From an uncultured delta proteobacterium (GTDB lineage Bacteria; Desulfobacterota; Binatia; Binatales; Binataceae): DNA of 64,000 nt. The notes below the pieces were generated by a model. That model was given only the letters and a program-made list of their open reading frames with translations. It did not search any database and was not told the DNA's origin. The stretch lies in contig CAWKCZ010000007.1 of assembly GCA_963848285.1 (NCBI GenBank), forward strand, positions 361,597 to 425,596, written 5' to 3'. The position numbers were made by a program, and so were the translations under genes. This document shows, in pieces, positions 5,114-56,507 of this stretch; within the stretch, counting starts at the first letter, position 1; each line of letters opens with the position of its first letter.

Positions 5114-5722
5114 TCAACTCGCCTTGGCCGACAGCAATTGCTGCAGCGCCTCCTTCACGTCGGCGCGCGACCAGTCGAAGGCGCCCATATGATGCGCGAC
5201 GATGCGCCCGTTGCGATCGATGATAAACGTCTCGGGCACCCCGCTGACGCCGTAGGAATCGCCGACCTTGTTTTCCGGATCGAGCAGGATCCTAAAATGG
5301 TATCCGTTCTTCTCGACGTAGGGCACCACCGCCGATTTGCCCTTGGTGTCCTGGCTGACCGCGAGCATCACGAAGTCCTTGTTGCCCTTGAGCTCGTCGT
5401 ACAGCGTCTCCATCGAGGGCATTTCCTCGCGGCAGGGCCCGCACCAGGTCGCCCATACGTTGAGGAAAACCACCTTGCCCTTGAGCGACGCGAGCGAAAC
5501 GGTCTCGCCGGTGAGCGCATCCTCGAGCTTGAAGTCGCGCTCGCGATGTCGCCGGCCGGCACCGGGCGGCGCCTTCGCTGGTCGCCGTGCTCTCGCCCGA
5601 TGCGTCGGCAGCAGCGCGACCGCATGCGGATGGCTGAGCTCATACTGACGCCGCAAACAGCAGCAGCGCGGCGAGCACGAGGAATGCGCCGATGCGCGCA
5701 AGGGTCTTTCCGCTGATCTCCA
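5114..5722 (-). CDS. TlpA/ResA-like thiol-disulfide oxidoreductase (thioredoxin fold, WCGPC); frameshift after the N-terminal TM segment
   Basis: MEISGKTLARIGAFLVLAALLLFAA (stop), then ...KGKVVFLNVWATWCGPCREEMP...GVSGVPETFIIDRNGRIV in the frame of ORF 5114..6250. Confidence 0.7.
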   Translation of the reverse strand, partial: WRSAERPLRASAHSSCSPRCCCLRRQYELSHPHAVALLPTHRARARRPAKAPPGAGRRHRERDFKLEDALTGETVSLASLKGKVVFLNVWATWCGPCREEMPSMETLYDELKGNKDFVMLAVSQDTKGKSAVVPYVEKNGYHFRILLDPENKVGDSYGVSGVPETFIIDRNGRIVAHHMGAFDWSRADVKEALQQLLSAKAS

Positions 5723-5779
5723 TTTACGCCTGTCACCGCCGGCTTCCGGCTCCTGCTTCCGGCTTGCCGCTAGTGCTCG

Positions 5780-6598
5780 ATGGCGTTCGTCGGCGCCGGC
5801 ACGTGCGGGACGACATACATAATGCGCGCCGATGATCATCATCACGATCGCAATCAACTGCGCCTCGCTGAGACCCATGAAGACCCGCGGATTAACCCGC
5901 AGAAACTCGACCATGAAGCGCGCCGCGCCGGCGAGCATCAGATATAGATAGAACAACTGGCCGGGCACTTTGGTTTCCTTTCGCCGCGACCACAGAAACA
6001 GGAAGATCAGCGTATAGAGGATGGCCTCGTAAATCGGCGTCGGATGGACATGGACGCCCGGATAAAATGCCGACACCAAATGGTTATGGCTGTCGAGCTT
6101 CAGCACCGTGTTGCCGTTCCATCCCACGATCGCGTTGGGATACTGCACGCCCCATGGCAGCGTGGTCGGCATCCCCCAGTCGCCGTCGCCCGACAGATGG
6201 CATCCGATGCGCCCCAGCGCCTGGCCAATCACCAGCGCGGGGCCGGCCATATCGGCAGCGGTCCAGAACGGGACTTGGTAATATCGCGACGACGAAATAC
6301 GGAGACAGCAGGCCGCCGATCAGGCCGCCGTACCATACGAAGCCGGAGCCCGAGAAAATGATCGACCACGGGTCGTGCATGTAGGACGGAAATTGTCGAT
6401 GTACCGAATACAGCCGCGAGCATGCGATGCCGCGCGATCGCCGCCCACACCACCATCGAGGAGGCGAAATCGGTGTTGAGCCCGCGCCGTTTGCATTCCG
6501 AGCTGATGACGAAGTCGGCGGCGAGAAAGCCCAGCGCCATCATCATGCCCGTAGCTGTAGACGGTAATCGGGCCGAGCTTGAAGAGAACCGGAATCAT
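5780..6598 (-). CDS. lgt: Prolipoprotein diacylglyceryl transferase; 2 frameshifts
   Basis: MIPVLFKLGPITVYSYG / LMMALGFLAADFVISSECKRRGLNTDF / ...GCHLSGDGDWGMPTTLPWGV...HPTPIYEAILYTLIFLFL are in three frames. ORF 5114..6250 is an artefactual fusion of lgt and tlpA. Confidence 0.8.
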
Positions 6599-6690
6599 CG
6601 AGATGAAATTATAATAGCGCGTCCGGGGGCGGAGACCAGAAGGGTTCTGTTGCGCGGCAAAGTTAACATTGCAGAGTAGCAGGAGGGATC

Positions 6691-7146
6691 ATGCGGGCGG
6701 TTTTGCAGCGGGTTTCCCAGGCCGAGGTGCGCGGTCGAATGACGACGTCATCGGAAAAATCGGGCGCGGCTTCGTCGTCCTACTCGGGGTAGCGAAGGAT
6801 GACACCGAGAAGGATGCGGCCTACATCGCGGACAAGACCCTCGCGATGCGGGTCTTCGCCGACGCCGAGGGCAAGATGAACCTCGCGCTGCGCCAGGTCG
6901 GCGGCGAGCTGCTGGTGATCTCGCAATTCACGCTGCTGGCGGATACCGAATCGGGGCGGCGTCCCTCGTTCATCCGGGCCGCGCCTCCTGAGGAAGCGAA
7001 GCGGCTGTACGAGCTGTTCCTCTCGCTGGTGAGAAACGACGGTGTTAAGGTTGAGACTGGCGAGTTCGGCGCGATCGATGGCGGTATCGCTGATCAACGA
7101 GGGGCCGGTGACGATCATGCTCGATAGCCGGAAGCAGCAGACCTAA
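6691..7146 (+). CDS. dtd: D-aminoacyl-tRNA deacylase; frameshifts near the 5' and 3' ends
   Basis: MRAVLQRVSQAEV...(shift)...DDVIGKIGRGFVVLLGVAKDDTEKDAAYIADKTLAMRVFADAEGKMNLALRQVGGELLVISQFTLLADT...INEGPVTIMLDS. Confidence 0.8.
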
Positions 7147-11018: not shown

Positions 11019-11351
11019 TCAGGCGACCGTCGCGCGGACAATCGTGCCGAAATCGGTGCCTACAAAATGTAGCGGCGCGTCCTTGGTGCCGCCCGCCTCC
11101 CATTGGAAGCGCACCCGATCGCCATACGCATCGACGCCGTCCTTGAGCCGGAACTGGTAGGCGTCGTTGAAGCGCTCGTGCACCGTCGCGATCATCGCGC
11201 TGATGCCCTCGTGGCCGTCGCCGCTGCGATGCGGGTCGGTGTAGTTGGCATCCTCGGTCCAGGCCTTGGCGACCATCGCGCGGCGCTTGTCGGGATCGCG
11301 CTCGTTCCACGCGGCGATGTAACGTTCGACGGTTTCTTTGGGGTTGCTCAT
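11019..11351 (-). CDS. SnoaL-like / NTF2-fold protein (ketosteroid-isomerase-like); intact
   Basis: MSNPKETVERYIAAWNERDPDKRRAMVAKAWTEDANYTDP... Confidence 0.6.
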   Translation of the reverse strand: MSNPKETVERYIAAWNERDPDKRRAMVAKAWTEDANYTDPHRSGDGHEGISAMIATVHERFNDAYQFRLKDGVDAYGDRVRFQWEAGGTKDAPLHFVGTDFGTIVRATVA

Positions 11352-11502
11352 GACGCTACTCCTTGGTTATGCGATGTGTATGCGCATCATTTGCGCACGC
11401 GGAGGAGTCGCATCAATTACGTGCGAGGTAAGGGTCAAACGGCAGGGCCAGCAGTTTCGTCGCGCCGCGAACCCATCGTTCAATTGTTCGGACGGGGGAC
11501 GC

Positions 11503-11730
11503 GTTCTTGTCATCCTGATGCAAGCGGAGCGCAGCAGAAGGATCTCGAAACGCGACAATGCGCCTCGTCGTTCGAATGCGCCGACGACTTCCATCCTGCC
11601 CTGCCGATAGGCCGTGGCGGCAGCCGATCAGGAGGATCGCGATGTTCCAAGGATCGAGATCCTTCCGCTACGCTACGCTTGCGTCAGGATGACATGCAAC
11701 GGAACAGGCTCACCTCAGGATGACGCTGGG
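11503..11730. mobile_element. MITE-like element: inverted copies of TGTCATCCTGA(t/c)GCAAGCG...GAAGGATCTCGA (11503-11555 direct; 11650-11730 inverted, with an extra half copy) flanking a roughly 95-bp core
   Basis: Read directly from the sequence. Related element at 34428-34640. Small ORFs here give the recurring peptides EILPLRYACVRMT and EILLLRSACIRMT. Confidence 0.55.
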
Positions 11731-11734
11731 AAGG

Positions 11735-14700
11735 TCAGCCGGTGGCGGCTTCCTTGGCGGGCGTGTCGAGTTCGCGCTCCAGGCGCTCGATGTCGACGGG
11801 TGACAAGCTGAAGTATTTTGCGTCCGGATGATGGATCACCATCGCGCTCACCGAGGCTTCCGGATCCATCATGTAGCCCTCGGTCAGATGCACATCGACA
11901 TTCTGCTTATCCACTTCGAGCAGGCGGAAAATCTGTTCCTGATCTTCCATCCGCGGGCACGCCGGATAGCCCGGCGAGAAGCGATTACCGTGATAATGCG
12001 CCTGGAAGAGATCCTTTTTCGTGGTGCCGGCCGGATCGCCGATGCCCCACATCGCGCGGATTTTTTCGTGCAGCAGTTCCGCGAATGCCTCGGCGCCTTC
12101 GAGCCCGAGCACCTGCAGGATGTGCGAGCGCAGGTAGTCGCCGCTTGTTCTTCCATTCCTCGGCGAGCGCGCGGATGCCGGTGCCGATGGTGGTGATGAA
12201 AAAGTTCACGTAGTCGAGGCGTCCGGAATCGCGCGGCGCGATGTAGTCCGCGAGGCATAGCCCGGGCGCGTCGCTCTGGCGCCCGAAGATGAAGGTCTCG
12301 AGGACGTTCTTGCCGTCGGGCTGAGGATCATCAGCGGTGCGATCGCCGTCGGACTGCGCGGGGAAAAATTTGTAGATCGCGTTCGCGCTGATGTCGGCTG
12401 CGCGCGATCATCAGATGCGCAACTTCCTCGACCGCGTCGTTCAGCTCGCGCGCCTTCGCATCGCCGCTTGCGAGCGCCTCTTCGAAATTCTTGAAGCCGA
12501 GATGTTTCGCATACAGCGACTTGGGATTGATGTAGTCGAAAATCTCGCCGAGGTCGTAGTCGCGCAGCACGTGCAGCTTCAGGTCCGGAGGCCGCGGAAT
12601 CTCGATGTCGCGGCGCACGCTCGCGCGCACCGCCGGCTTGGTCGGCGCATCGATGACCTTCGAGGCGATGCGCCTGCAGCCGCTGCGTCTCCTCTTCGAG
12701 GCGAATCTTGAGCGACTCGCGCGCCTCGCGATCCATGATCTGATTCGCGAGGTCGAGCCCGTTCATCGCGTCGTTGGCGTATGCGACCAGCCCCGCATAC
12801 TCGGGCGCGATCTTGATCCGCGTGAAGCGATTGCTGAGCGCGGCGCCGCCGACCAGGATCGGGCACGCGATTTCCGCGGTCTTCAAATCCTGCGCCGTGA
12901 TGACCATCATCTGCGCCGACTTGACCAGCAGTCCCGAAAGCCCGATCGCGTCGGGGCGATGCTCGCGGAACGCCTTGATGAGATCCTCGGGCGGCACCTT
13001 GATGCCGAGGTTGACGACGTTGTAGCCGTTGTTGCCGAGGATGATCTCGACCAGATTTTTGCCGATGTCGTGAACGTCGCCCTTGACCGTCGCGAGGATG
13101 ATTTTGCCCTTGCTGACGTTCTCGCTCTTGGTCATGTGCGGCTCGAGATGCGCGACCGCGGCCTTCATCGCCTCGGCCGATTGCAGCACCTCGGCGACGA
13201 TCATCTGGTTGGCGTTGAACAGCCGCCCGACCTCATCCATGCCCTTCATCAACGGGCCGTTGATGATTTCGAGCGGGCCGCGCGCCTGCAGCGCCTCGTT
13301 CAAATCCTCGAAGAGGCCGTCCTTGGAACCCTCCAAAATGTAGAGCGCGAGGCGCTCGTCGAGCGGCAGCGAGCGGCGCTGCTCGACGGTCTCCTTGCCC
13401 TTGCGCTCGCGGAAATGCGCCGCGAACGCCGCGATCGGATCCTCGCCGCGCCACCAGATGAGATCCTCGGCGAGCTTGCGCTCTTCTTCCGGAATCGACG
13501 GGTAGCGTTCGAGCTTCTCCGAGTTGACGATCGCGAGGTCGAGCCCGGCCTGCACGCAGTGATACAGCATCACCGAGTTGAGAACTTCGCGCCCCGCCTC
13601 GGGCAGCCCGAACGAAACGTTGGAGACGCCGAGGACGGTTTTGCAATTCGGCAGCGCCTGCTTGATGAGCCGGATGCCTTCGATCGTCTCGACGCCGGAG
13701 CCGATGTAATTTTTGTCGCCGGTGCCGACCGGGAACACCAGCGGATCGAAGATGATGTCCTCGGGCTCGACGCCGTACTTTTCGGTGAGCAGCTGGAACG
13801 AGCGCTGCGCGACTTGCAGTTTGCGCTCGCGCGTGACCGCCTGCGCCTGCTGCTTGTCCTCGTCGATACATCCGACCACCAGCGCCGCGCCGAAGCGCCG
13901 CGCCATCGGCACCACTTTCTTGAAGCGCTCTTCGCCGTCTTCGAGGTTGATCGAATTGATGATCGCCTTGCCCTGCGAGCGCTTGAGCGATTCCTCGATG
14001 ACCGCCGCATCGGTCGAATCGATCATCAGCGGAACTTTGATTTTCTTGACCAGGATGTCGAGGAAGGTGGTGATGTCGGCCATCTCGTTGCGATCGGGGT
14101 CCTGCAGGCATACGTCGAGGACGTGCGCGCCCTTGCGCACCTGCGCGCGCCCGATTTCCGAGGCTTCCTCGAACTTGCCCTGCGCGATGAGGCGCTTGAA
14201 CTTGCGGCTGCCGAGCACGTTGGTGCGCTCGCCGACGATCACCGGACGCGTGTCGTTGTCGATCACCAGCGTCTCGATTCCCGAGACGACCGAGCGCCGC
14301 AGCGTCGAGGGCATGCGCGGCTTCTTGCCCGCGACCGCATCGGCCAGCAGCTTGATGTGCTCGGGCGTGGTCCCGCAGCATCCGCCGACGAGGTTCACCC
14401 ATCCGTTGTCGATGAAGCGCGCGACCTTGGCCGCGAACATCTCGGGCGTCTCGTTGTACTTGCCCTCCTCGTCGGGCAGGCCGGCGTTGGGGACGCATGC
14501 GACATCGAAGCGGCAGATCTCCGAGAGCGTGCGCAGATGATCGGTCATGAAGTCCGGGCCGGTCGCGCAGTTGAGCCCCATCCACAAGAGATCGCGATGC
14601 GCGAGCGAGACGTAAAACGCCTCGATGTCCTGCCCGGCGAGCAGCGTGCCCATCGTCTCGACGGTGCCCTGCACCGAAACCGCGACCGGCGCGCCGGTCT

Positions 14701-15266
14701 TCTTAATCGCGCGCTCGATGCCGGTCAGGATGGCTTTGACGTTGACGGTATCCTGCATGGTTTCGAGCAGGAGCACATCGACGCCGCCCTCGATGAGGCC
14801 GAGCGCCTGCGCTTCATAGGCATCGGCGACCTGATCGAAGGTGATGCCGCCGGTGACGGAAATGGTCTTGGTGCCGGGGCCCATCGAGCCGATGACGAAG
14901 CGCGGTTTGTCGGGAGTGCTGAAGGCGTCGGCTTCGAGCGCGGGCGAGCTCGGCGGCGCGCTGATTGATTCGATGGGTTTGGTCCGCGAGACTGTACTCG
15001 CCGAGGACGTAGGGGATTGCGCCAAAGGTCGCGGTTTCGATAAGGTCGGCGCCCACTTCGAGGAAGCTTTGATGCATCTTGCGGATAGCGTCGGGGCGGG
15101 TGAGGACGACGTTTTCGTTGCAGCCCTCGTATTGCGGGCCGCCGAAGTCCTCGGGTCCGAAATTGAGCCCCTGGATATAGGTGCCGAACGCGCCGTCGAT
15201 CACGAGGATGCGCTGCGCCAGCAACTCCCGAAGGAGCTTTATTCGAGCAGGGTCAGTCAGCATCAA
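11735..15266 (-). CDS. metH: Cobalamin-dependent methionine synthase, all domains present; many frameshifts
   Basis: Hcy-binding N-terminus (14814..15266), pterin/B12 domains in the 939-aa ORF 12206..15025 and activation domain (11735..12112) are separated by frame changes around 12206-12330 and 14814-15025. Confidence 0.9.
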
Positions 15267-15361
15267 AGCCTCGAAATCTGGTTAAGACGAACCTCGAAGT
15301 TTAACCCAGTGACTGCAGCCCTCGCAATTTAGCCATCTTCGCGATCAAAAGCTGCACGCGC

Positions 15362-16260
15362 ATGAGCGCGAACCGAACCGTATTGGTTACCGGAGGCGCC
15401 GGTTTTGTCGGCTCCAACCTGGTCGACGAACTCCTCGCCCGCGACCTGCGAGGTGCGCGTCGATCGATAACTTCGCGACCGGCAGCCGCAAGAACCTCAA
15501 TCCTCGCGCCGAGCTGATCGAGGCCGACATCCGCGACGGCGAGGCGATCCGGGCGGCCTTCGAGGGCGTCGATTGCGTATTTCACGTCGCCGCGCTGCCG
15601 CGAATTCCGCTCTCGATCGCCAAGCCGGTCGAGACGCATATGACGAATGTGGTCGGCACTCTGAATGTGCTCATCGCGGCGCGCGATGCCAAGGTGCGGC
15701 GGGTCATCTATTCGGGGTCATCATCTGTATATGGCGACCAGACCGTCGATGCCGCTGGTCGAGACGATGACGCCCAACCCGCTCAATCCTTACGCGCTGC
15801 AGAAGTACGTCGGCGAGCAATACACGCGGATGTTCCATCGGCTGTTCGCGATGGAGACCCTCACGCTGCGCTACTTTAACGTCTACGGCCCGCGGATGGC
15901 GTCCGAGGGCGCTTACGTCACGGTCATTTCCGCCTTCATGGCGGCGCGGCAAGCGCGGCGAGCCGCTGCAAATCCATGGCGACGGCGAGCAGACCCGCGA
16001 TTTCACCCACGTCAGCGACATCGTCGCGGCGAACATCCTCGCGATGGATGCCCCGACTGCGGATGGCCGCGCGATCAACGTCGGCGCCGGACGCAATGTC
16101 AGCATCAATCGCATCGCGGACCTCATCGGAGGTCAGCGGGTGCGCGATGGAAGGGCGCAAGGGCGACATGCGCAACACGCTGGCCGATACCACCGAGGCC
16201 TCGCGCATCCTGGGATGGCGTCCGCAGGTCTCGGTCGAGGAAGGGGTCCGCAGCTGCTGA
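15362..16260 (+). CDS. NAD-dependent epimerase/dehydratase (GalE/WbpP-like); about 4 frameshifts
   Basis: MSANRTVLVTGGAGFVGSNLVDELLARD / ...VRVIDNFATGSRKNL...VFHVAALPRIPLSIAKP / ...NPYALQKYVGEQYTRMF...YFNVYGPRM / ...HGDGEQTRDFTHVSDIVAANI / ...ASRILGWRPQVSVEEGVRSC*. Confidence 0.75.
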
Positions 16261-41308: not shown

Positions 41309-42347
<1,039 letters not shown>

Positions 42348-42766: not shown

Positions 42767-43858
42767 CTATTTAGTCTGCGCCTCGATAGTCAGTGGAAGC
42801 TGAAAGCGCAGGGTCTGCGGCGGTTCGCATACGGTGTCGCTGCAGGCCTGGAAGCGCAGGGTACCTTCGATTTTGTATGACCCCGGCTCAATGCGCTTGC
42901 CCAGCGCCTCCATAAATTTTATCGGCGCGGGCGGGCTCCACTTGATGCCGAGCTTGCCGAGGGCGCTAATTTTTCCTTCATACACCGGCAGGGTTTCGCC
43001 CAGCGCCTTGAGGAGCACCGGCTTGGCTGCCGGCATCTCCAGCGATTGCTCGTCCACCAGCGGGCCCTCGAATTTCAGCTCAATAGACTGATAGTTATCA
43101 GGAAGCGGGGTGCCGTAGACATGCCATCCGGGCTGGAGGTTAACCTCCAGCGCGACGCCCAACTCCTGTCCGGGGAAGCATCGATCGGTCGAGAGGCCAA
43201 TGATCGCGGTGAGCACATCGGTTTTGATTTCGAGGGAATTTGGCGCCGCCGCCATCCCGCCCCGGCGCAACGTAAACTGCGTCACCGACGGACGATGCTC
43301 GTAGTTCTCGAGGAATACCTTATCCAGCACAGTGCCATCGGGCGCGAGGAGGAAATCGCCCGGCCACGGCATCCCATACATCATTTTGTGGTCTTCGGGG
43401 ACGTTGGTGTTGAGGATGCCGAATGCGCGGATTACCTTGCTGCCGACATCGGACAGCAGCGGATACTCGATGTGGTTGGCGTCACTGAAACGCTTGAGGA
43501 TTTCCCGCGAATCATAAGTGATCGACGCGACATTGATGCCCTGCGCTTTGAGATTCTTGAGCGAGTATTGCAGCTCGACGAGCTGGTTGCGGCAGTAGGG
43601 TCACCAATCGGCGCTGCGGCTGAAGATGAGCGCGAGCCCGTTTGACCCCATCAAATCCTTGAGCGCAAGCATCCGGCCATTCTGGTCGGGCAGCGCAAAG
43701 TCCGGAACCTTGGCGCCAATCGCGGGACCGGTTTGATAGCCGTGATTCTGCGCCGCGACGAATTCAAGCCAATCATCGGTGGTGATATCGGCGCCGCCCG
43801 CGCCCATGCGAGGAATCATATCGCGAAGTATCGAGGCTCTGGTTTTAGTTTCCATCAC
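42767..43858 (-). CDS. Candidate selenoprotein: Prx/Bcp-like redoxin domain fused to a DsbD-N(alpha)-like domain; in-frame TGA at 43601-43603 inside the redox motif W-U-P-Y-C
   Basis: ORFs 43601..43858 and 42767..43384 are in the same frame, separated only by TGA: ...GAKVPDFALPDQNGRMLALKDLMGSNGLALIFSRSADW-[TGA]-PYCRNQLVELQYSLKNLKAQGINVASITYDSREILKRFSDANHIEYPLLSDVGSKVIRAFGIL...; the C-terminal domain carries QACSDTVCEPP. Hairpin CAGCUCGUCGAGCUG lies 15 nt downstream of the UGA. Confidence 0.55.
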
Positions 43859-43897: not shown

Positions 43898-44581
43898 TTA
43901 GCGCGTGACGATGGCCTGCGCGACCTTCACCATTTCCGCAGTCGGCTCCTTCAGCACCAATGGCTCCGGCACCGCAACCCCGCGCTGACAGGCCGGCCGC
44001 GCCTCCATGCGAGCCAGCCATGCTTGCAGATTGGGGAGCCCTTCAACGCTGACGCCGCTCCACGGATGGATTCGCACCCAGCACCAGTTGGCGATGTCGG
44101 CAATGCTGTACTCATCGCACAGGTACTGGCGACCTGTAAGTTGGCTCTCGAGCACTTCGAACAGGCGTCGGCATTCGTTGTGGTAGCGCTGGATCGCAGC
44201 GGGAATCTTTTCGGGAAAGTAGCGATAGAAGACGTTGGCCTGGCCCATCATCGGACCGATGCCGGCCATCTGGAACATCAGCCATTGGGTGACGCGCGAC
44301 TCGCCCTTGTCGTCCTGGGGCAGGAGCTTGCCGGTCTTCTTCGCGAGGTAGAGCAAAATCGCGCCGGTCTCGAAAACTGCGAAGTCACCATTAGCGCGAT
44401 CGACGATGGCCGGGATTCTGCCATTGGGGCGGAGCTTCAGAAACTCGGCCTGCTTCTGCTCGCCCTTGCTCAGATCGATTTTATGAACGTTGTAGGGCAG
44501 CCCGACTTCTTCCAGATAGACGGAAACCTTCCAGCCGTTGGGAGTTGAGGCGGTGTACAGGTCGATTGTGGGCGAGCTCAT
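43898..44581 (-). CDS. Nu-class glutathione S-transferase (YfcG/YghU-like GSH-dependent disulfide oxidoreductase); intact
   Basis: [61 protein letters not shown]...[15 protein letters not shown]... Confidence 0.75.
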
Positions 44582-44723: not shown

Positions 44724-45344
44724 ATGGCGCGTCCCAAAGAATTTGATCATCGCGAAGTGCTTGACCGCGCGACCAATCTGTTCTGGACCCGTGGTTACGA
44801 TGCGACCTCGATCGAGGACGTGGTCGAAGCCACCGGCATCAACCGCGGCAGTATCTATGGCACTTTCGGCGACAAACAGGGGCTCTTTAACGCAGTACTC
44901 GAATACTACACTCAAATCGTCGCTAACTCGATGTTAGCGGAGTTGGCGGACCCGGATCCGCGCCGCGCCATCGAACGAATGTTCGCTTTTATTATCGATC
45001 GCACCAGCAACCCGAAACTGCCGCGCGGATGCCTCATCACCAACACTTCGCTGGGATGTCGAAGTCGCGGCGATGAAATTTCCCTCCACATCGAAAAATG
45101 CTTCGGCAAGGTCGAAGATGCCATCCATGCAGTGATGCGCCGGGCACAAGCCGCGGGCCTGGTAGCTTCGCCGCGCGAGGCGAAGGCACTCGGACGGTTT
45201 TTCTTCTGCATCGTGCAGGGCCTCAACGTCCTGAACAAGGCCGCGGTGGAACCGGAGGCGCTGAATGATATGGCGCGAGTCGCCATGAGCGTCTGGCAGA
45301 ACTCCCGCGCATTGCCACATCGAAGAGCTGTGGCCGCTCGCTAA
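44724..45344 (+). CDS. TetR/AcrR-family transcriptional regulator; intact; divergent from the GST/redoxin operon
   Basis: ...REVLDRATNLFWTRGYDATSIEDVVEATGINRGSIYGTFGDKQGLFNAVLEYY... Confidence 0.75.
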   Translation: MARPKEFDHREVLDRATNLFWTRGYDATSIEDVVEATGINRGSIYGTFGDKQGLFNAVLEYYTQIVANSMLAELADPDPRRAIERMFAFIIDRTSNPKLPRGCLITNTSLGCRSRGDEISLHIEKCFGKVEDAIHAVMRRAQAAGLVASPREAKALGRFFFCIVQGLNVLNKAAVEPEALNDMARVAMSVWQNSRALPHRRAVAAR

Positions 45345-48891: not shown

Positions 48892-50842
48892 TTAGATCTC
48901 GTAACTGAGGGTCGCCTCCAGCTCGCTGATGCGCTGGTCGCGGCTGAACAGGAACGGATCCGTGTTGCGTCCGCTGCGGCCCAGGTACCAGATCCCATTC
49001 AGCCCCAACAGGATGTTACGCGAATAGCGGAACACGTTGGTGCTGCCCAGGTTGCCGGTGTTGTCGTCGATGTCCCATGCAAACGCGTTGGTCGACGTCA
49101 ACTGTCCATTGACCAGCCAGTTGGTGCTCGCAAGGAAGAAGAAGTTGCTGAAGCGACGCACCTTGCCGTATGCATTCGCGATGTTCGGAATCGCATGCCC
49201 CGGCAGATCGGGGTACCAGGTCTCGACGAACTGGCCGACCAGGAAGGTGTGCTGCTTGGAAATCCATGGAATGTAGGTCGGACGGTCGCCGGCCAGGATG
49301 AAGCGGCCGAACTCGGTCCACCGTGCTGCCGACTCACCGAGCCGCACGTTACGCGTCACGACCGGAGACGCACTCGGCGTAGGACCACCAGTGGGAGGGC
49401 CTGAAACGTCGATACCGACCTTCGGGGCGTACAGCGTGTCGTAGCGGAACACCATGTCGGTCAGGTCTTTGTCGTAGTAGGTTCCCGTCAAACCGAAGAA
49501 GTGGTTGCGACGGAAATTCTCGCTGGTGTACGGACGAATCGTTCCGAACGGCACCGGGCCTCCCGGAGGCGGTGCACCGAAATCGAACTGCCCGGGCAGC
49601 AGGAATACGCCCGGAAAGGCCTTAATGGTTCCGCCACCGCTTCGGTTGATCGGAGTCGGGCACGACGAGCATAGACCCGCTTTCGAATAGCGCGCCTCGT
49701 AAAGGTAGATGAAGCTTGCCTGCAACCCATTTCCGATCGGCAGCAAACTCGAATAACGGAAACCAAACTCGCTCTTGTCCAGCGTATTACGCGGGGTGTT
49801 CGAGTAGCCGGGTCCGCCTGTCAGACCGGCATTCGGATCAAACTGCGTATAGACATTGGTGGGCGCCGCAGCAGTTCCGAGGTTGGTGATACTCGATGGG
49901 AACTGTCCCAGATCCGCGAAGGTCTGGTGCCGATAGGGCTGCCCAAGGCGGTTGTATTGAATGAGCGGTCCGACCGGCGCTCGCACCATCCACGGGTTGC
50001 GCGCGTCGTTTAGCTGAACGACCGCAGTGTCACCCTGATAGTCGCCCGGAATGACGAAAGCCTCGGCCTCGTTGTTCGCAGTCTTCAGGAAGTCCGGCAG
50101 GATGTAGTTGAACTTCAACATCCTGACGTTCTTGCGCAGATTTTCTGCGGTCTCGAAATGGGTCCAGTGAAAGGTCAGGTCGTTTGGGTTGGTAATTTCA
50201 GTTCCCGACAACGCATCAGCTTCCGACCAGATGACCTGCTGCTTGCCGACACGGGCGGAAAAGTTGTCGCTGAAATTTAGCTGCCCGTAGTACTCGCGCA
50301 GGTCGTTGCGGAAGTACTCCTCCTGGATCTCCTGCTGCGTATACACCTTCCAGTCGCGTCGCGGTCTGGGCGACGCCCTCGCGCTTGATGGTCCCCAATG
50401 CGTTGTACCAGGGACGATAGAATGCAAAGAAATCCGCATCCTTAAGAATCAGTGTGTCGAGGCGGCCGAGGAACTTGTAGTTCTTGACCATATGGTAATC
50501 GGGTCGGACGTCGGCCAGTTGCCGCATCTGCACCAGGTCCCAATGGTTGAAATCGAAGCTCCCGCCGGTTTCCGTCGGTGCGCGTCCGGGATTGGTCTGA
50601 ATTGATCCCACCCCTGCTACCGGCGGTGTGAAGGTCGCAGGACTTCCGGTCCCGGACTTGGCACTGCCCTCGCCCCATCGACCGGACTCCCGGGTTTCGA
50701 AGAATCCGAACACCGAAAAGTCGCCTTGCGTAATCGTTGCGTTCGCCGCGGAGGTCCACAGCGTCGCGACCCCGGCGCATGCGGCGATCAACAGATTTCG
50801 CCAGCGCGCACCGCGACCAACACCCAACTTGTTCTTCACCAT
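48892..50842 (-). CDS. Large secreted / outer-membrane beta-barrel protein (about 640 aa, DUF1302-like), copy 1; one frameshift near 50330-50440
   Basis: Signal peptide MVKNKLGVGRGARWRNLLIAACAGVATLWTSAANA; Gly/Asn/aromatic-rich amphipathic strands ...RYSRNILLGLNGIWYLGRSG...ATLSYEI*. Confidence 0.55.
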
Positions 50843-52252: not shown

Positions 52253-54170
52253 TTAGATCTCGTAACTGAGGGTCGCCTCCAGCTCGCTGATGCGCTGGTC
52301 GCGGCTGAACAGGAACGGATCCGTGTTGCGTCCGCTGCGGCCCAGGTACCAGATCCCATTCAGCCCCAACAGGATGTTACGCGAATAGCGGAACACGTTG
52401 GTGCTGCCCAGGTTGCCGGTGTTGTCGTCGATGTCCCATGCAAACGCGTTGGTCGACGTCAACTGTCCATTGACCAGCCAGTTGGTGCTCGCAAGGAAGA
52501 AGAAGTTGCTGAAGCGACGCACCTTGCCGTATGCATTCGCGATGTTCGGAATCGCATGCCCCGGCAGATCGGGGTACCAGGTCTCGACGAACTGGCCGAC
52601 CAGGAAGGTGTGCTGCTTGGAAATCCATGGAATGTAGGTCGGACGGTCGCCGGCCAGGATGAAGCGGCCGAACTCGGTCCACCGTGCTGCCGACTCACCG
52701 AGCCGCACGTTACGCGTCACGACCGGAGACGCACTCGGCGTAGGACCGCCAGTGGGCGGACCTGAAACGTTGATACCGACCTTCGGGGCGTACAGCGTGT
52801 CGTAGCGGAACACCATGTCGGTCAGGTCTTTGTCGTAGTAGGTTCCCGTCAAACCGAAGAAGTGGTTGCGACGGAAATTCTCGCTGGTGTACGGACGAAT
52901 CGTTCCGAACGGCACCGGGCCTCCCGGAGGCGGTGCACCGAAATCGAACTGCCCGGGCAGCAGGAATACGCCCGGAAAGGCCTTAATGGTTCCGCCACCG
53001 CTTCGGTTGATCGGAGTCGGGCACGACGAGCATAGACCCGCTTTCGAATAGCGCGCCTCGTAAAGGTAGATGAAGCTTGCCTGCAACCCATTTCCGATCG
53101 GCAGCAAACTCGAATAACGGAAACCAAACTCACTCTTGTCCAGCGTGTTGCGCGGAGTGTTCGAATATCCCGCTCCACCGGTTAAACCACCACTGGGATC
53201 AAACTGCGTATAGACATTGGTGGGCGCCGCAGCAGTTCCGAGGTTGGTGATACTCGATGGGAACTGTCCCAGATCCGCGAAGGTCTGATGCCGATAGGGC
53301 TGCCCAAGGCGGTTGTATTGAATGAGCGGTCCGACCGGCGCTCGCACCATCCACGGGTTGCGAGCGTCGTTTAGCTGAACGACCGCAGTGTCACCCTGGT
53401 AATCGCCCGGAATGACGAAAGCCTCGGCCTCGTTGTTCGCGGTCTTCAGGAAGTCCGGCAGGATGTAGTTGAACTTCAACATCCTGACGTTCTTGCGCAG
53501 ATTTTCCGCGGTCTCGAAATGAGTCCAATGAAAGCTCAGATCGTTCGGGTTGGTAATTTCAGTTCCCGACAACGCATCAGCTTCCGACCAGATGACCTGC
53601 TGCTTGCCGACACGGGCGGAAAAGTTGTCGCTGAAATTTAGCTGCCCGTAGTACTCGCGCAGGTCGTTGCGGAAATACTCCTCCTGGATCTCCTGCTGCG
53701 TATACACCTTCCAGTCGCGTGCGGTCTGCGCGACGCCCTCGCGCTTGAGGGTCCCCAACGCGTTGTACCAGGGACGATAGAACGCAAAGAAATCCGCGTC
53801 CTTAAGAATCAGTGTGTCGAGGCGGCCGAGGAACTTGTAGTTCTTGACCATGTGGTAGTCGGGCCGGACGTCGGCCAGTTGCCGCATCTGCACCAGGTCC
53901 CAATGGTTGAAATCGAAGCTCCCGCCGGTTTCCGTCGGTGCGCGTCCGGGATTGGTCTGGATTGATCCCGACCCCCGGTACCGGCGGTGTGAAGGTCGCA
54001 GGACTTCCGGTCCCGGACTTGGCACTGCCCTCGCCCCATCGACCGGACTCCCGGGTTTCAAAGAATCCGAACACCGAAAAGTCGCCCTGTGTGATCGTTG
54101 CGTTCGCTGCGGAGGTCCACAGCGTCGCGACCCCGGCGCATGCGGCGATCAACAGATTTCGCCAGCGCAC
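52253..54170 (-). CDS. Large outer-membrane beta-barrel protein, copy 2; one frameshift near 53940-54060, at a different place from copy 1
   Basis: ORF 52253..54061 (602 aa, intact through the region broken in copy 1) plus the N-terminal signal-peptide segment 53802..54170. Confidence 0.55.
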
Positions 54171-54574: not shown

Positions 54575-55165
54575 CTAGGCGCTCTCCGGAGTCAGGTCCT
54601 CGGCGAGCGACTTCGCGAGGTCTCCTCCGATGCGACCCTCGGCGCCGAGGTTGGGATGGTCGGCCTGAATGGCGATTTTCCCGTCCCTCGCAAGGGTCAG
54701 AAATGCATCAGGGTCCATTGCGACTTCGAAGCGCACGAACTGCACCGAACTGACGCGCTCCGGCGACATCTGCCGCTCGTCGAATTTGAGTGGAACTTTG
54801 CGATCGCCAAGCTTCAGCGACAGATGCTTCTCGACGCCGACCAGCCGCCGCAACGCCGCATCGCGCTCCTTGGCTTCGGCGAACTCAATCAGCAGCGTCG
54901 CCGAGATCTCGCCTCGCGCGGGGATCAACTCATTGTAGGTATCGATCTCATGCTGGATGGCGGCATCATCCTTGAGTTGCTCGGAGCGAATCATCTCTTC
55001 GACCTGGTACCAAAGCGTCGCGGTGTTTTCGAAGAGAAACGTCAGATGCGATCCAACCGCGAGCCGACGGCGTTCCTTCTCATGGATGAAGAGCGGGCGC
55101 AGCACCGGCCGCACCTTTTGCCATTGCTCGAGGCTGAGGATTTCGTTCTTGGTGATCTTCTTCAT
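54575..55165 (-). CDS. DUF3501-family protein; intact
   Basis: MKKITKNEILSLEQWQKVRPVLRPLFIHEKERRRLAVGSHLTFLFEN...; co-occurs with HdrD-like FeS proteins. Confidence 0.55.
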   Translation of the reverse strand: MKKITKNEILSLEQWQKVRPVLRPLFIHEKERRRLAVGSHLTFLFENTATLWYQVEEMIRSEQLKDDAAIQHEIDTYNELIPARGEISATLLIEFAEAKERDAALRRLVGVEKHLSLKLGDRKVPLKFDERQMSPERVSSVQFVRFEVAMDPDAFLTLARDGKIAIQADHPNLGAEGRIGGDLAKSLAEDLTPESA

Positions 55166-56507
55166 TTGGATTCCTCCGCAGCCTCAGGAGGCGGAACTTT
55201 GTCGGGAAAGCCGCCCTCGTCGTACGCAGCCGCAAGCACTTCGAGCGGATGCACCGGATGCACTCCCGTCGCCTGCTCGATCTGAATCGCCGAGAGCGGG
55301 CAATCGGTCGTCATCAAATTCGCGTCGGCGTCGCGCATGCCGTTGAATGCCTTCGCGCCCCATTTCATCGAGAGCTCGAAGTACTCCTTCTTCATCGCCC
55401 AGATGCCGTCGTGCGCGGTGCACGCATCGACGCTGACGACCTCGGCGCCGGGAATCGTGCGCATCATGTCGCGCGAGCGAAAGCCAATCTGCTGCGCCTT
55501 CAGATGACATGGGATGTGGTAGGCGACCTTGCCCGGCGTGGTGCGAAAATCGCGATTAAACTTGCCGTCGCGCTTGAGCTGGAACAGCAGCTCGTTCGGA
55601 TCGACCACGGCCGCGGCGAATTCCTTCACCTCATCGCCGGGAAGCAGCAGCGGATACTCGCGCCGCATCGTCAGCGAGCAGGTCGGATTGATCGCCGCGA
55701 TTTTGAATCCGCGGCGCACGTACGGCAGCATCGAATCGATGTTGGCGCGCGCCTGCTTCTGCGCGAAATCGACATCGCCGCCGTCGAGCGCCGGCATCCC
55801 GCAGCAGTTCTGCTTCGGGCATGCGATCTCGCATCCATTCTTTTCGAGCACCTTGACCGCGGCCTTGCCCGGCGCGGTGTCGTAATAATTGATGAAGCAG
55901 GTCGGGAATAGCACGACCTTCGCGGTCGGATTCGTGGGCGGCTTCGGCAGGTTGTCGCGCAGCCATTTGTCGAGCGTCTGATCGGCAAACTCGGGAAGCT
56001 TCTTGTCGCGATGAATCCCGAGCAGCTTCTCCATCAGCGCGCGATTGAGCGTGTTGCGGCATCCGAAGTTCGCGAGCCCCGGCAGCAGGCTGCCGAGCTT
56101 CCCGAGGCGATCGGGATTCGAGAGCATCTTGTCGCGGAACTCGACGCCCTTCTCTTTCGCCGTGACCGCCTTGTCGCGCTGCATCAGACGCGGGAAATCG
56201 AGCTGGAACTCGTGACCATCACCGGGAGTGTACGGACATCGCACCTCGCACATCTTGCACAGGTAGCAGAGGTCGACGACGTTGCGTTTCTCATCAGCAG
56301 TGAGCTTGACGAACGTCGCCGTCGTTGCGGTCGACCGCATCGAACAGCGCCGGGAACGAAGGGCACAAATTGAAGCACAGCCGGCATCCGTGGCAGATGT
56401 CGAACACGCGGGTGACTTCCTTGTCGAGGCCCTCGCGGCTCCAGTACTTCGGTTCAGTCGATGTTGTAGGTAAGCCCGTCGGTCGGCTGCGACGAAATGC
56501 GGCTCAT
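55162..56507 (-). CDS. Heterodisulfide-reductase-related (Fe-S)-binding protein (2x C-x2-C-x2-C-x3-CP plus CCG domains; GlpC/HdrD-like); N-terminal frameshifts
   Basis: MSRISSQPTDGLTYNID / ...VFDICHGCRLCFNLCPSFPALFDAVD / ...DLCYLCKMCEVRCPYTPGDGHEF...FPTCFINYY...CCGMP... Confidence 0.7.

Follow-up and report, generated by a model that had tools for sequence, protein, structure and literature searches.

The minus strand of a 64-kb stretch of DNA from an uncultured delta proteobacterium of the family Binataceae (contig CAWKCZ010000007.1, positions 361,597 to 425,596; the window below) carries at 42767..43858 what is, judging from its sequence, very probably a single intact gene for a genuine selenocysteine (Sec)-containing member of the Prx-like UxxC family. 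The best explanation overall appears to be that this gene specifies a selenoprotein thiol-disulfide oxidoreductase in which an in-frame UGA is decoded as Sec, a reading to which we give a probability of about 0.85. Two minus-strand open reading frames (ORFs), 43601..43858 (85 aa) and 42767..43384 (205 aa), share the same frame, and the sole stop codon between them is a TGA at plus-strand positions 43601-43603. Reading through this codon, as an initial annotation of the window had proposed, gives a product of 363 aa from a GTG at 43858 or of 362 aa from an ATG at 43855, a result reproduced here from the sequence, the ORF list and the translation. The ATG is the likelier start since an AAGGAG sequence stands 7 nt upstream of it. 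The residues around the TGA are SRSADW-U-PYC-RNQLVEL. The elements of the gene are as follows.

42767..43858, minus strand: predicted selenoprotein gene, complete, starting at GTG 43858 or ATG 43855, with one Sec codon
43863..43868, minus strand: Shine-Dalgarno sequence AAGGAG, 7 nt upstream of ATG 43855
43601..43603, minus strand: in-frame TGA, predicted Sec codon (U86, numbered from the GTG)
43592..43603, minus strand: redox motif U-P-Y-C (U86 to C89) with a Trp before it, from the translation
43571..43585, minus strand: candidate selenocysteine insertion sequence (SECIS)-type hairpin CAGCUC-GUC-GAGCUG, 6 bp with loop GUC, from folding and covariation
43328..43720, minus strand: AhpC/TSA domain (redoxin, thioredoxin fold), aa 47-177, Pfam PF00578
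42800..43183, minus strand: DsbD_N domain (DsbD-alpha-like, Ig-like beta-sandwich), aa 226-353, Pfam PF11412
42827..42844, minus strand: C-x4-C pair of the DsbD_N domain, C339-S-D-T-V-C344, from conservation
42767-42769, minus strand: stop codon TAG

The read-through protein matches the AhpC-TSA family with E=1.5e-27 (96.4 bits against a cut-off of 26), and the domain runs across the TGA at residue 86. The Pfam Redoxin family also matches (2.9e-12). The C-terminal part matches DsbD_N with 1e-7 (32.4 bits against a cut-off of 25), so that both halves of the predicted architecture, an N-terminal AhpC/TSA redoxin and a C-terminal DsbD-alpha-like domain, score above threshold. C339 and C344 are invariant, and the CxxxxC pair is present at 82/82 sites, window copy included.

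Homologs were surveyed by scanning one genome per species. This yielded 79 loci, which come from metagenome-assembled genomes (MAGs) of Binataceae or 'delta proteobacterium' designation, from Bryobacterales and other Acidobacteriota, from Terriglobia, from two Chloroflexi and from one Acidimicrobiia, and which contain 81 homologous sites (82 with the window copy). The active-site codon is TGA at 77 of the 81 sites, in agreement with the earlier contention that the TGA is no random error, and TGC or TGT at the remaining four (L023_2639, L052, L054 and L079). The family thus uses Sec much more often than Cys. The TGA carriers span at least four phyla, with the motif W-?-P-[YF]-C, and several genomes hold two to four TGA copies (L003, L040 and the CBDCLS01 loci). 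Against five orthologs, the ratio of nonsynonymous to synonymous substitution rates (dN/dS) is 0.15-0.20 over the 84 codons that precede the TGA and 0.06-0.13 over the 100 codons that follow it; this purifying selection on both flanks means that both sides are translated in this frame. TGA is nevertheless an ordinary stop here. It is the true stop of 15 of the 26 long ORFs of the window, where it is the commonest stop, and terminates 37 of the 82 gene copies of the family, window copy included. It has therefore not been reassigned in these organisms.

A second line of evidence comes from the sequence just past the codon. The 15-nt palindrome CAGCUCGUCGAGCUG, at 43571-43585, starts 15 nt past the UGA and its bases overlap the codons for Q-L-V-E-L. 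Covariation was assessed in a gap-free alignment of 72 distinct sequences comprising the TGA and the 51 nt that follow. At pair 21-31, 55 sequences have GC, 16 have AU and 1 has GU, and the pair is broken in none; at pair 22-30, 70 have CG and 2 have UA; at pair 24-28, 52 have CG, 4 have GC and 16 are unpaired, for the most part as G·G, so that the loop there becomes the 5-nt GGUCG. An extra outer pair, 18-34, shows CG in 26 sequences, GC in 8 and UA in 2. The helix scores 0.172 for covariation as compared with 0.091 in shuffled alignments (0/500 shuffles as high), slid controls all score 0.064 or less, and RNAalifold, unprompted, returns the same helix. On a neighbour-joining tree, sequences with GC at pair 21-31 are intermixed with those that have AU, which requires about 12 parsimony changes. 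All changes in the hairpin are synonymous (CAG/CAA for Gln, CTG/TTG for Leu, GAG/GAA for Glu and CTC/CTG/TTG for Leu), so that selection on the protein does not explain why the changes in paired bases are coupled. The G of the loop is invariant and the U next to it is at least 90% conserved. Among the Sec forms, the core pairs are kept 6/6 at 59 sites, 5/6 at 18 and 4/6 at 1, and all six are intact in the window; in the four Cys forms no more than 2-4 of the six remain, and most Cys proteins have QLADL, HLADL, HLMQL or HLVQF in place of QLVEL. The GC hairpin that the initial annotation had noted 15 nt past the UGA is thus found at exactly that position, with compensatory changes among homologs and decay in the Cys forms. 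A SECIS kept by repeated compensatory synonymous changes inside the codons of a conserved peptide would be a clean natural example of dual coding.

The hairpin can be compared with a published model of bacterial SECIS elements (PMC13188914), which has a loop of 3-9 nt, a stem of 4-16 bp, a G in the first two loop positions, a UGA-loop spacing of 16-37 nt and a minimum free energy (MFE) of -7.5 kcal/mol or lower. With a loop of 3 nt that starts G-U, a stem of 6 bp and a UGA-loop spacing of 21 nt, the window hairpin lies inside the first four ranges.

Several observations nevertheless weigh against decoding as Sec. The MFE of the hairpin, the fifth term of the model, is -7.4 kcal/mol and so falls 0.1 short. 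This value shows no extra stability over shuffled sequences either (z = -0.05); as single-sequence stability equals chance, only the comparative data give the hairpin its significance. Part of its sequence conservation must be at the protein level, since its bases encode the conserved QLVEL and one Cys form, L054, retains that peptide. No SECIS family of Rfam was matched anywhere in the window at gathering thresholds, nor between 43480 and 43680 at E<=10, where the only match was a chance one to a long non-coding RNA. None of the NCBIfam selenoprotein models reached its cut-off (SelL_rel_redox NF040769, 43.9/120; WAxxUGC_long NF041054, 36.2/300; PrxU NF040737, 19.7/270). The assembly is error-prone, with many frameshifts, so that the single base on which the TGA depends is less secure. 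Finally, neither the 64-kb window nor the 79 loci yielded a tRNA-Sec with ARAGORN, or a SelA, SelB or SelD homolog by tblastn with E. coli queries from NC_000913; these searches covered the window and 1.4 Mb of related loci, a sample of a size at which absence is expected and uninformative. In five Bryobacterales loci (L046, L064, L066, L068 and L073) a tRNA gene lies some 150-250 nt upstream of the selenoprotein gene on the opposite strand. It specifies an ordinary tRNA-Ser(GGA) and is not a tRNA-Sec gene.

Some of the loci show further peculiarities of copy number and reading frame. Multiple or tandem TGA-bearing copies occur in L003 (at 8429 and 10256), in L040 (at 4140 and 10256) and in L049, L050, L051 and L056; these last four all belong to one Acidobacteriota MAG, CBDCLS01, in which as many as four almost identical copies occur, perhaps as part of a repeated element. 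One Binataceae contig, L023, has a Cys form at 2639 (W-C-P-Y-C, with a degraded hairpin) and, 3.3 kb from it at 5998 on the plus strand, a more distant 379-aa paralog with a TGA in W-U-P-P-C followed by a hairpin identical to that of the window. Since L023 carries both, Sec and Cys versions coexist in one genome. A copy in another Acidobacteriota MAG (L029:2982, plus strand) has, besides the usual TGA, both a TAG in frame and a second in-frame TGA 34 codons on (…DDRETU RAFGG…); rather than a second Sec codon, this probably reflects a pseudogene, a copy in decay or poor assembly. Early stops in L036 and L040 were considered as extra Sec codons and ruled out as products of frameshifts.

What kind of enzyme the selenoprotein might be was approached through its closest solved structures. 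By sequence these are a BCP (2cx3, E=2.6e-13) and ResA (3c71, E=1.6e-10; ResA structures range from 1e-10 to 1e-8). The ResA alignment places U86 on the first, nucleophilic Cys of W-C-P-H-C. In the alignment with BCP (S-P-V-C), U86 takes the Ser/Thr place of PxxxT/SxxC, and the peroxidatic Cys is matched by C89. The two agree with the original placement of the TGA at the first Cys of W-C-x-x-C, which is the T of the Prx TxxC. The PxxxT/SxxC signature itself is absent, the Pro position being Ser82 and the Thr/Ser position U86. From these alignments the site is of the dithiol (seleno)CxxC type on a Prx-like scaffold that lacks the peroxiredoxin signature.

Models of the folds were also examined. 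An AF2 (AlphaFold2) model of the Cys homolog P0002, 68% identical to the window protein, has a mean predicted local distance difference test (pLDDT) score of 86.7 and a predicted template modelling (pTM) score of 0.83, which fits a defined arrangement of the two modelled domains against each other. Foldseek matched its N-terminal domain to BcpB (5epf, the best), ResA and AhpE, with a TM-score on the target of about 0.75. The C-terminal domain of the window protein, modelled by itself (pLDDT 92.2), is an all-beta sandwich whose only significant matches in the PDB are the N-terminal domain of ScsB (6c29, E=2.9e-5) and nDsbD (3pfu, E=7.8e-5).

Among other explanations, the one that survives best accepts the selenoprotein and takes the redoxin domain for a Sec-dependent peroxidase of the Prx/BCP type, the DsbD_N domain serving only to recycle it. 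This we regard as unlikely. It draws on the BCP/PrxQ and AhpE proteins among the best sequence and fold matches, on the alignment of C89 with the peroxidatic Cys of BCP, on the thiol peroxidase model that is the top NCBIfam match (51.3 bits against a cut-off of 140, hence sub-threshold) and on the adjoining genes for a glutathione S-transferase (GST) and a TetR regulator. Yet the Prx signature PxxxTxxC is absent, W-x-P-x-C with its preceding Trp is the CxxC motif of the ResA/TlpA/CcmG type, and UxxC proteins with an AhpC/TSA domain are classed in the literature as thiol:disulfide oxidoreductases and not as peroxidases (2026 review of the prokaryotic selenoproteome).

A protein search with U replaced by C retrieved 750 relatives. 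Six are full-length fused Cys homologs of 364-368 aa with W-C-PYC (P0001, P0002 and P0004-P0007), and three read W-W-PYC at the site (P0003, P0008 and P0009), most simply explained by a gene caller that translates TGA as Trp. The great majority are 260-279-aa models that start at assorted codons just past the site, from which it follows that gene callers routinely truncate the family. The nearest locus match, L001, is 74% identical, and the best database protein, P0010, is 90% identical over the C-terminal part only. In the alignment with the Cys homologs, which the initial annotation had suggested as a check, the TGA falls on the Cys of W-C-PYC. These homologs are single fused proteins, so that its other concern, that the N-terminal half might elsewhere be a separate, terminated protein, does not hold.

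These relatives bear on the possibility that the UGA is read as Trp or Cys by a near-cognate tRNA, with stimulation by the hairpin, in place of Sec. The Trp that some pipelines put at the site, the small size of the hairpin and the failure to find Sec machinery in the window or the 79 loci could all be cited in its favor. It is, however, very improbable: the site is that of the catalytic nucleophile and holds Cys in every homolog without the TGA, and a Trp there would abolish CxxC chemistry; the G-U loop and the spacing fit the SelB-type model; and the Sec trait is documented in Acidobacteria and in many 'Deltaproteobacteria', with the present family among the selenoproteins of such lineages.

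The conservation of the TGA, the selection on both of its flanks and its use as a normal stop together exclude, for practical purposes, an error of sequencing, a nonsense mutation private to this genome and a two-gene layout. In the last of these an 85-aa peptide would end at the TGA and a separate protein would start downstream, as existing annotations imply; gene callers do yield such models (the 205-aa P0013 and the 260-279-aa entries) and alternative start codons are available downstream. We consider this alternative negligible, because it would cut a thioredoxin fold through its active-site helix (domain aa 47-177, TGA at 86), the downstream starts vary (MKAHG, LKAHG, VELQ, MSLKD and others) with none conserved, the Cys homologs are continuous, and no Shine-Dalgarno-like requirement explains the conserved hairpin. 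Equally negligible is the possibility that the TGA arose through faulty sequencing or assembly, or as a recent nonsense mutation, which would make this a pseudogene or a gene with a real TGC/TGT: the assembly is indeed rich in errors, with the GDP-mannose dehydratase, MetH and Lgt genes broken, and the gene itself is frameshifted in loci from similar long-read MAGs (L036 and L040), but all the other disruptions are indels and not substitutions, as the initial annotation had remarked (GDP-mannose dehydratase, 41309..42347, MetH and Lgt alike), both flanks are under purifying selection, the hairpin has 6/6 pairs, and the presence of TGA at 77/81 homologous sites, in genomes assembled by many groups and methods, effectively refutes it already.

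With decoding as Sec preferred, one consequence concerns annotation. Gene models in this record, and in nearly all of the 79 related genomes, are truncated ORFs of 205-279 aa, so that the product would be a widespread selenoprotein of soil bacteria that is systematically mis-annotated. A curation rule is possible, namely a TGA in RSADW-U-P-[YF]-C followed by the hairpin CARCUS-GUS-GAGYUG. A scan of the window for other Sec genes, by in-frame TGA and redox motif, gave only off-frame, high-GC noise, and suspicious TGAs downstream of MetH (12206) and upstream of Lgt (6320) were traced to frameshifts.

The comparative evidence suggests how such a protein would be made and might work. A SelB-type elongation factor would bind the hairpin and deliver Sec-tRNA(Sec) to the UGA at 43601-43603, producing an active site W-U86-P-Y-C89 on a thioredoxin-fold AhpC/TSA domain of the ResA/BCP kind. 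By analogy with the chemistry of CxxC reductases, U86 would be the attacking nucleophile and would form a selenenylsulfide with C89. A Prx-like UxxC redoxin fused with a DsbD-alpha-type module suggests a built-in electron relay: the UxxC and C339-x4-C344 centers may exchange a disulfide or selenenylsulfide in two steps within one polypeptide or dimer, as a fused version of the transfer from DsbD-alpha to CcmG/ResA/TlpA that normally takes place between separate proteins. We put forward this intramolecular relay as a tentative proposal with somewhat less than even chances.

The predicted location of the protein differs between lineages. The N-terminus of the window protein is without a hydrophobic segment (maximum Kyte-Doolittle value 0.27); the protein shares with its Binataceae orthologs a conserved hydrophilic N-terminal extension of about 45 aa in which two helices are predicted. 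Most Acidobacteriota orthologs, Sec forms included, have a typical signal peptide, and so have the Cys forms L052, L054 and L079, three of the four. The Binataceae forms, with the extension in place of a signal peptide, should therefore act in the cytoplasm, and the Acidobacteriota forms, from their signal peptides, outside it. A membrane domain of the DsbD-beta/CcdA kind, which might have placed the window protein at the periplasm, is absent, the gene encoding no transmembrane domain. These sequence features suggest that the ancestral enzyme of the family was probably exported, in keeping with its DsbD-alpha module, and that the Binataceae branch looks cytoplasmic. A more far-reaching scenario, in which a self-contained two-center relay of exported origin in soil Acidobacteriota moved to the cytoplasm in Binataceae, seems doubtful on present evidence; doubtful to the same degree are its component steps, in which the signal peptide would have been lost, a 45-aa helical extension gained and the gene often placed under a divergent TetR regulator. 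Were the relay and the relocation true, the protein would provide the first case of a DsbD-alpha module used in the cytoplasm, in a selenoprotein architecture not described before, and the SECIS would dictate the QLVEL peptide.

Two neighboring genes were identified with Pfam.

43898..44581, minus strand: glutathione S-transferase (GST_N and GST_C), upstream and co-oriented
44724..45344, plus strand: divergent TetR regulator (TetR_N and TetR_C_13)

Only 40 nt separate the start of the selenoprotein gene from the GST gene, and the TetR protein is a possible local regulator. These matches bear out the identity of the two neighbors as first described; the redox-stress context drawn from them is weak. 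A divergent TetR gene lies about 1.1 kb upstream in 18/79 loci, all of the Binataceae type, and a GST gene lies near, at varying offsets, in 14/79, Binataceae only. No other neighbor recurs, and a conserved partner (such as CcdA/DsbD-beta or thioredoxin reductase) was not found near the gene in the 79 loci.

Elsewhere in the window several genes are interrupted. The GDP-mannose 4,6-dehydratase gene (41309-42347, minus strand) is split at Pfam profile position 156; MetH (11300-15400, minus strand) has at least two frameshifts, its N-terminus and C-terminal activation domain lying in other frames; and the N-terminal part of Lgt (5114-6720, minus strand) hops through three frames. Such an indel-rich pattern is typical of long-read-only MAGs, and the related Microflora Danica (MFD) loci L036 and L040 show it in the selenoprotein gene. 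A 378-aa ORF at 5114-6250 (minus strand) joins the C-terminal part of Lgt to a TlpA/ResA-like redoxin (WATWCGPC) through an Arg/Ala-rich, junk-like linker and probably arose where a frameshift fused two neighboring genes; this second redoxin of the window carries an ordinary CxxC. Two ORFs on the minus strand, 48892-50439 (515 aa) and 52253-54061 (602 aa), have no Pfam match and have in common, in an overlapping frame, peptide strings that are almost the same (around 50030 and 53391), which suggests local duplication of an uncharacterised gene. The 392-aa product of 55162-56340 (minus strand) contains a CCG cysteine-rich domain of the heterodisulfide-reductase/GlpC kind. Some bacteria have GlpC-like Fe-S oxidoreductases that are selenoproteins, but this gene showed no in-frame TGA.

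The family itself is not new. A 2026 review of the prokaryotic selenoproteome lists a 'Prx-like thiol:disulfide oxidoreductase, PF00578, UxxC/UxxU', predicted with high confidence, and a 'Redoxin family protein, PF08534, UxxC'. Among the 'Prx-like 1' set of a 2008 Global Ocean Sampling (GOS) study is JCVI_READ_900765 (supplement of PMC2398784), with the sequence ...MILFHRSADWUPYCKAQLVELQVQLKTLKEQG... and a signal peptide. BLASTP aligns the window protein with it at 39% identity (E=1e-50) over 228 aa, reaching into the C-terminal domain, and on the strength of this match the window gene is a member of an already predicted selenoprotein family. The assignment to the UxxC Prx-like thiol:disulfide oxidoreductases made in the initial annotation thus stands, with PF00578, W-U-P-Y-C and a published member all in agreement. 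In the searchable literature we found no description of a redoxin/DsbD_N selenoprotein fusion; no account of SECIS covariation, of the ratio of Sec to Cys or of a split between exported and cytoplasmic forms for the Prx-like UxxC family; and no paper linking Binatia or Binatota with selenocysteine. New here are the DsbD-alpha-like fusion partner, the strong predominance of Sec and the signal-peptide split. As the family was predicted to consist of selenoproteins in 2008, the find is a fairly ordinary one that mainly corrects annotation, and the current understanding of selenoproteins is not overturned.

Compared with known systems, the hairpin resembles the E. coli fdhF-type SECIS and the bSECISearch consensus in being a small stem-loop just past the UGA with a loop that begins G-U, and its apical loop (3-5 nt), stem (6-8 bp) and UGA-loop spacing (21 nt) lie within bacterial ranges. 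It differs from bacterial SECIS elements in that it is very short, has an MFE that just misses, has no identified bulged U and matches nothing of the kind in Rfam. The protein is like Prx-like 1 (Kryukov/Zhang/Gladyshev) in its Pfam domain, in W-U-P-Y-C and in the flanks RSADWUPYC..QLVELQ; unlike JCVI_READ_900765 with its signal peptide, it belongs to a Binataceae clade and has the 45-aa N-terminal extension and no signal peptide. BCP/PrxQ proteins provide its best match to a solved structure (2cx3) and its best fold match (BcpB, 5epf), yet PxxxTxxC is not kept and the Sec at the Thr/Ser position creates a UxxC motif of the dithiol type. With ResA, CcmG and TlpA, the natural electron acceptors of DsbD-alpha, the protein shares a thioredoxin-fold redoxin with a W-C-P-x-C-type motif. 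Unlike them, it has Sec as the first Cys and a fused DsbD-alpha-like domain in place of a separate DsbD or CcdA as donor, and lacks a membrane anchor and a signal peptide. E. coli DsbD-alpha uses C103 and C109 (C-x5-C). The C-terminal domain of the window protein, above the DsbD_N threshold, is like the alpha domains of DsbD and ScsB in having an invariant Cys pair near its C-terminal strands; it differs from DsbD-alpha in its C-x4-C spacing and in its predicted cytoplasmic location, and the gene as a whole differs from DsbD (alpha-beta-gamma) in having no transmembrane beta domain and in its order, redoxin first and then alpha.

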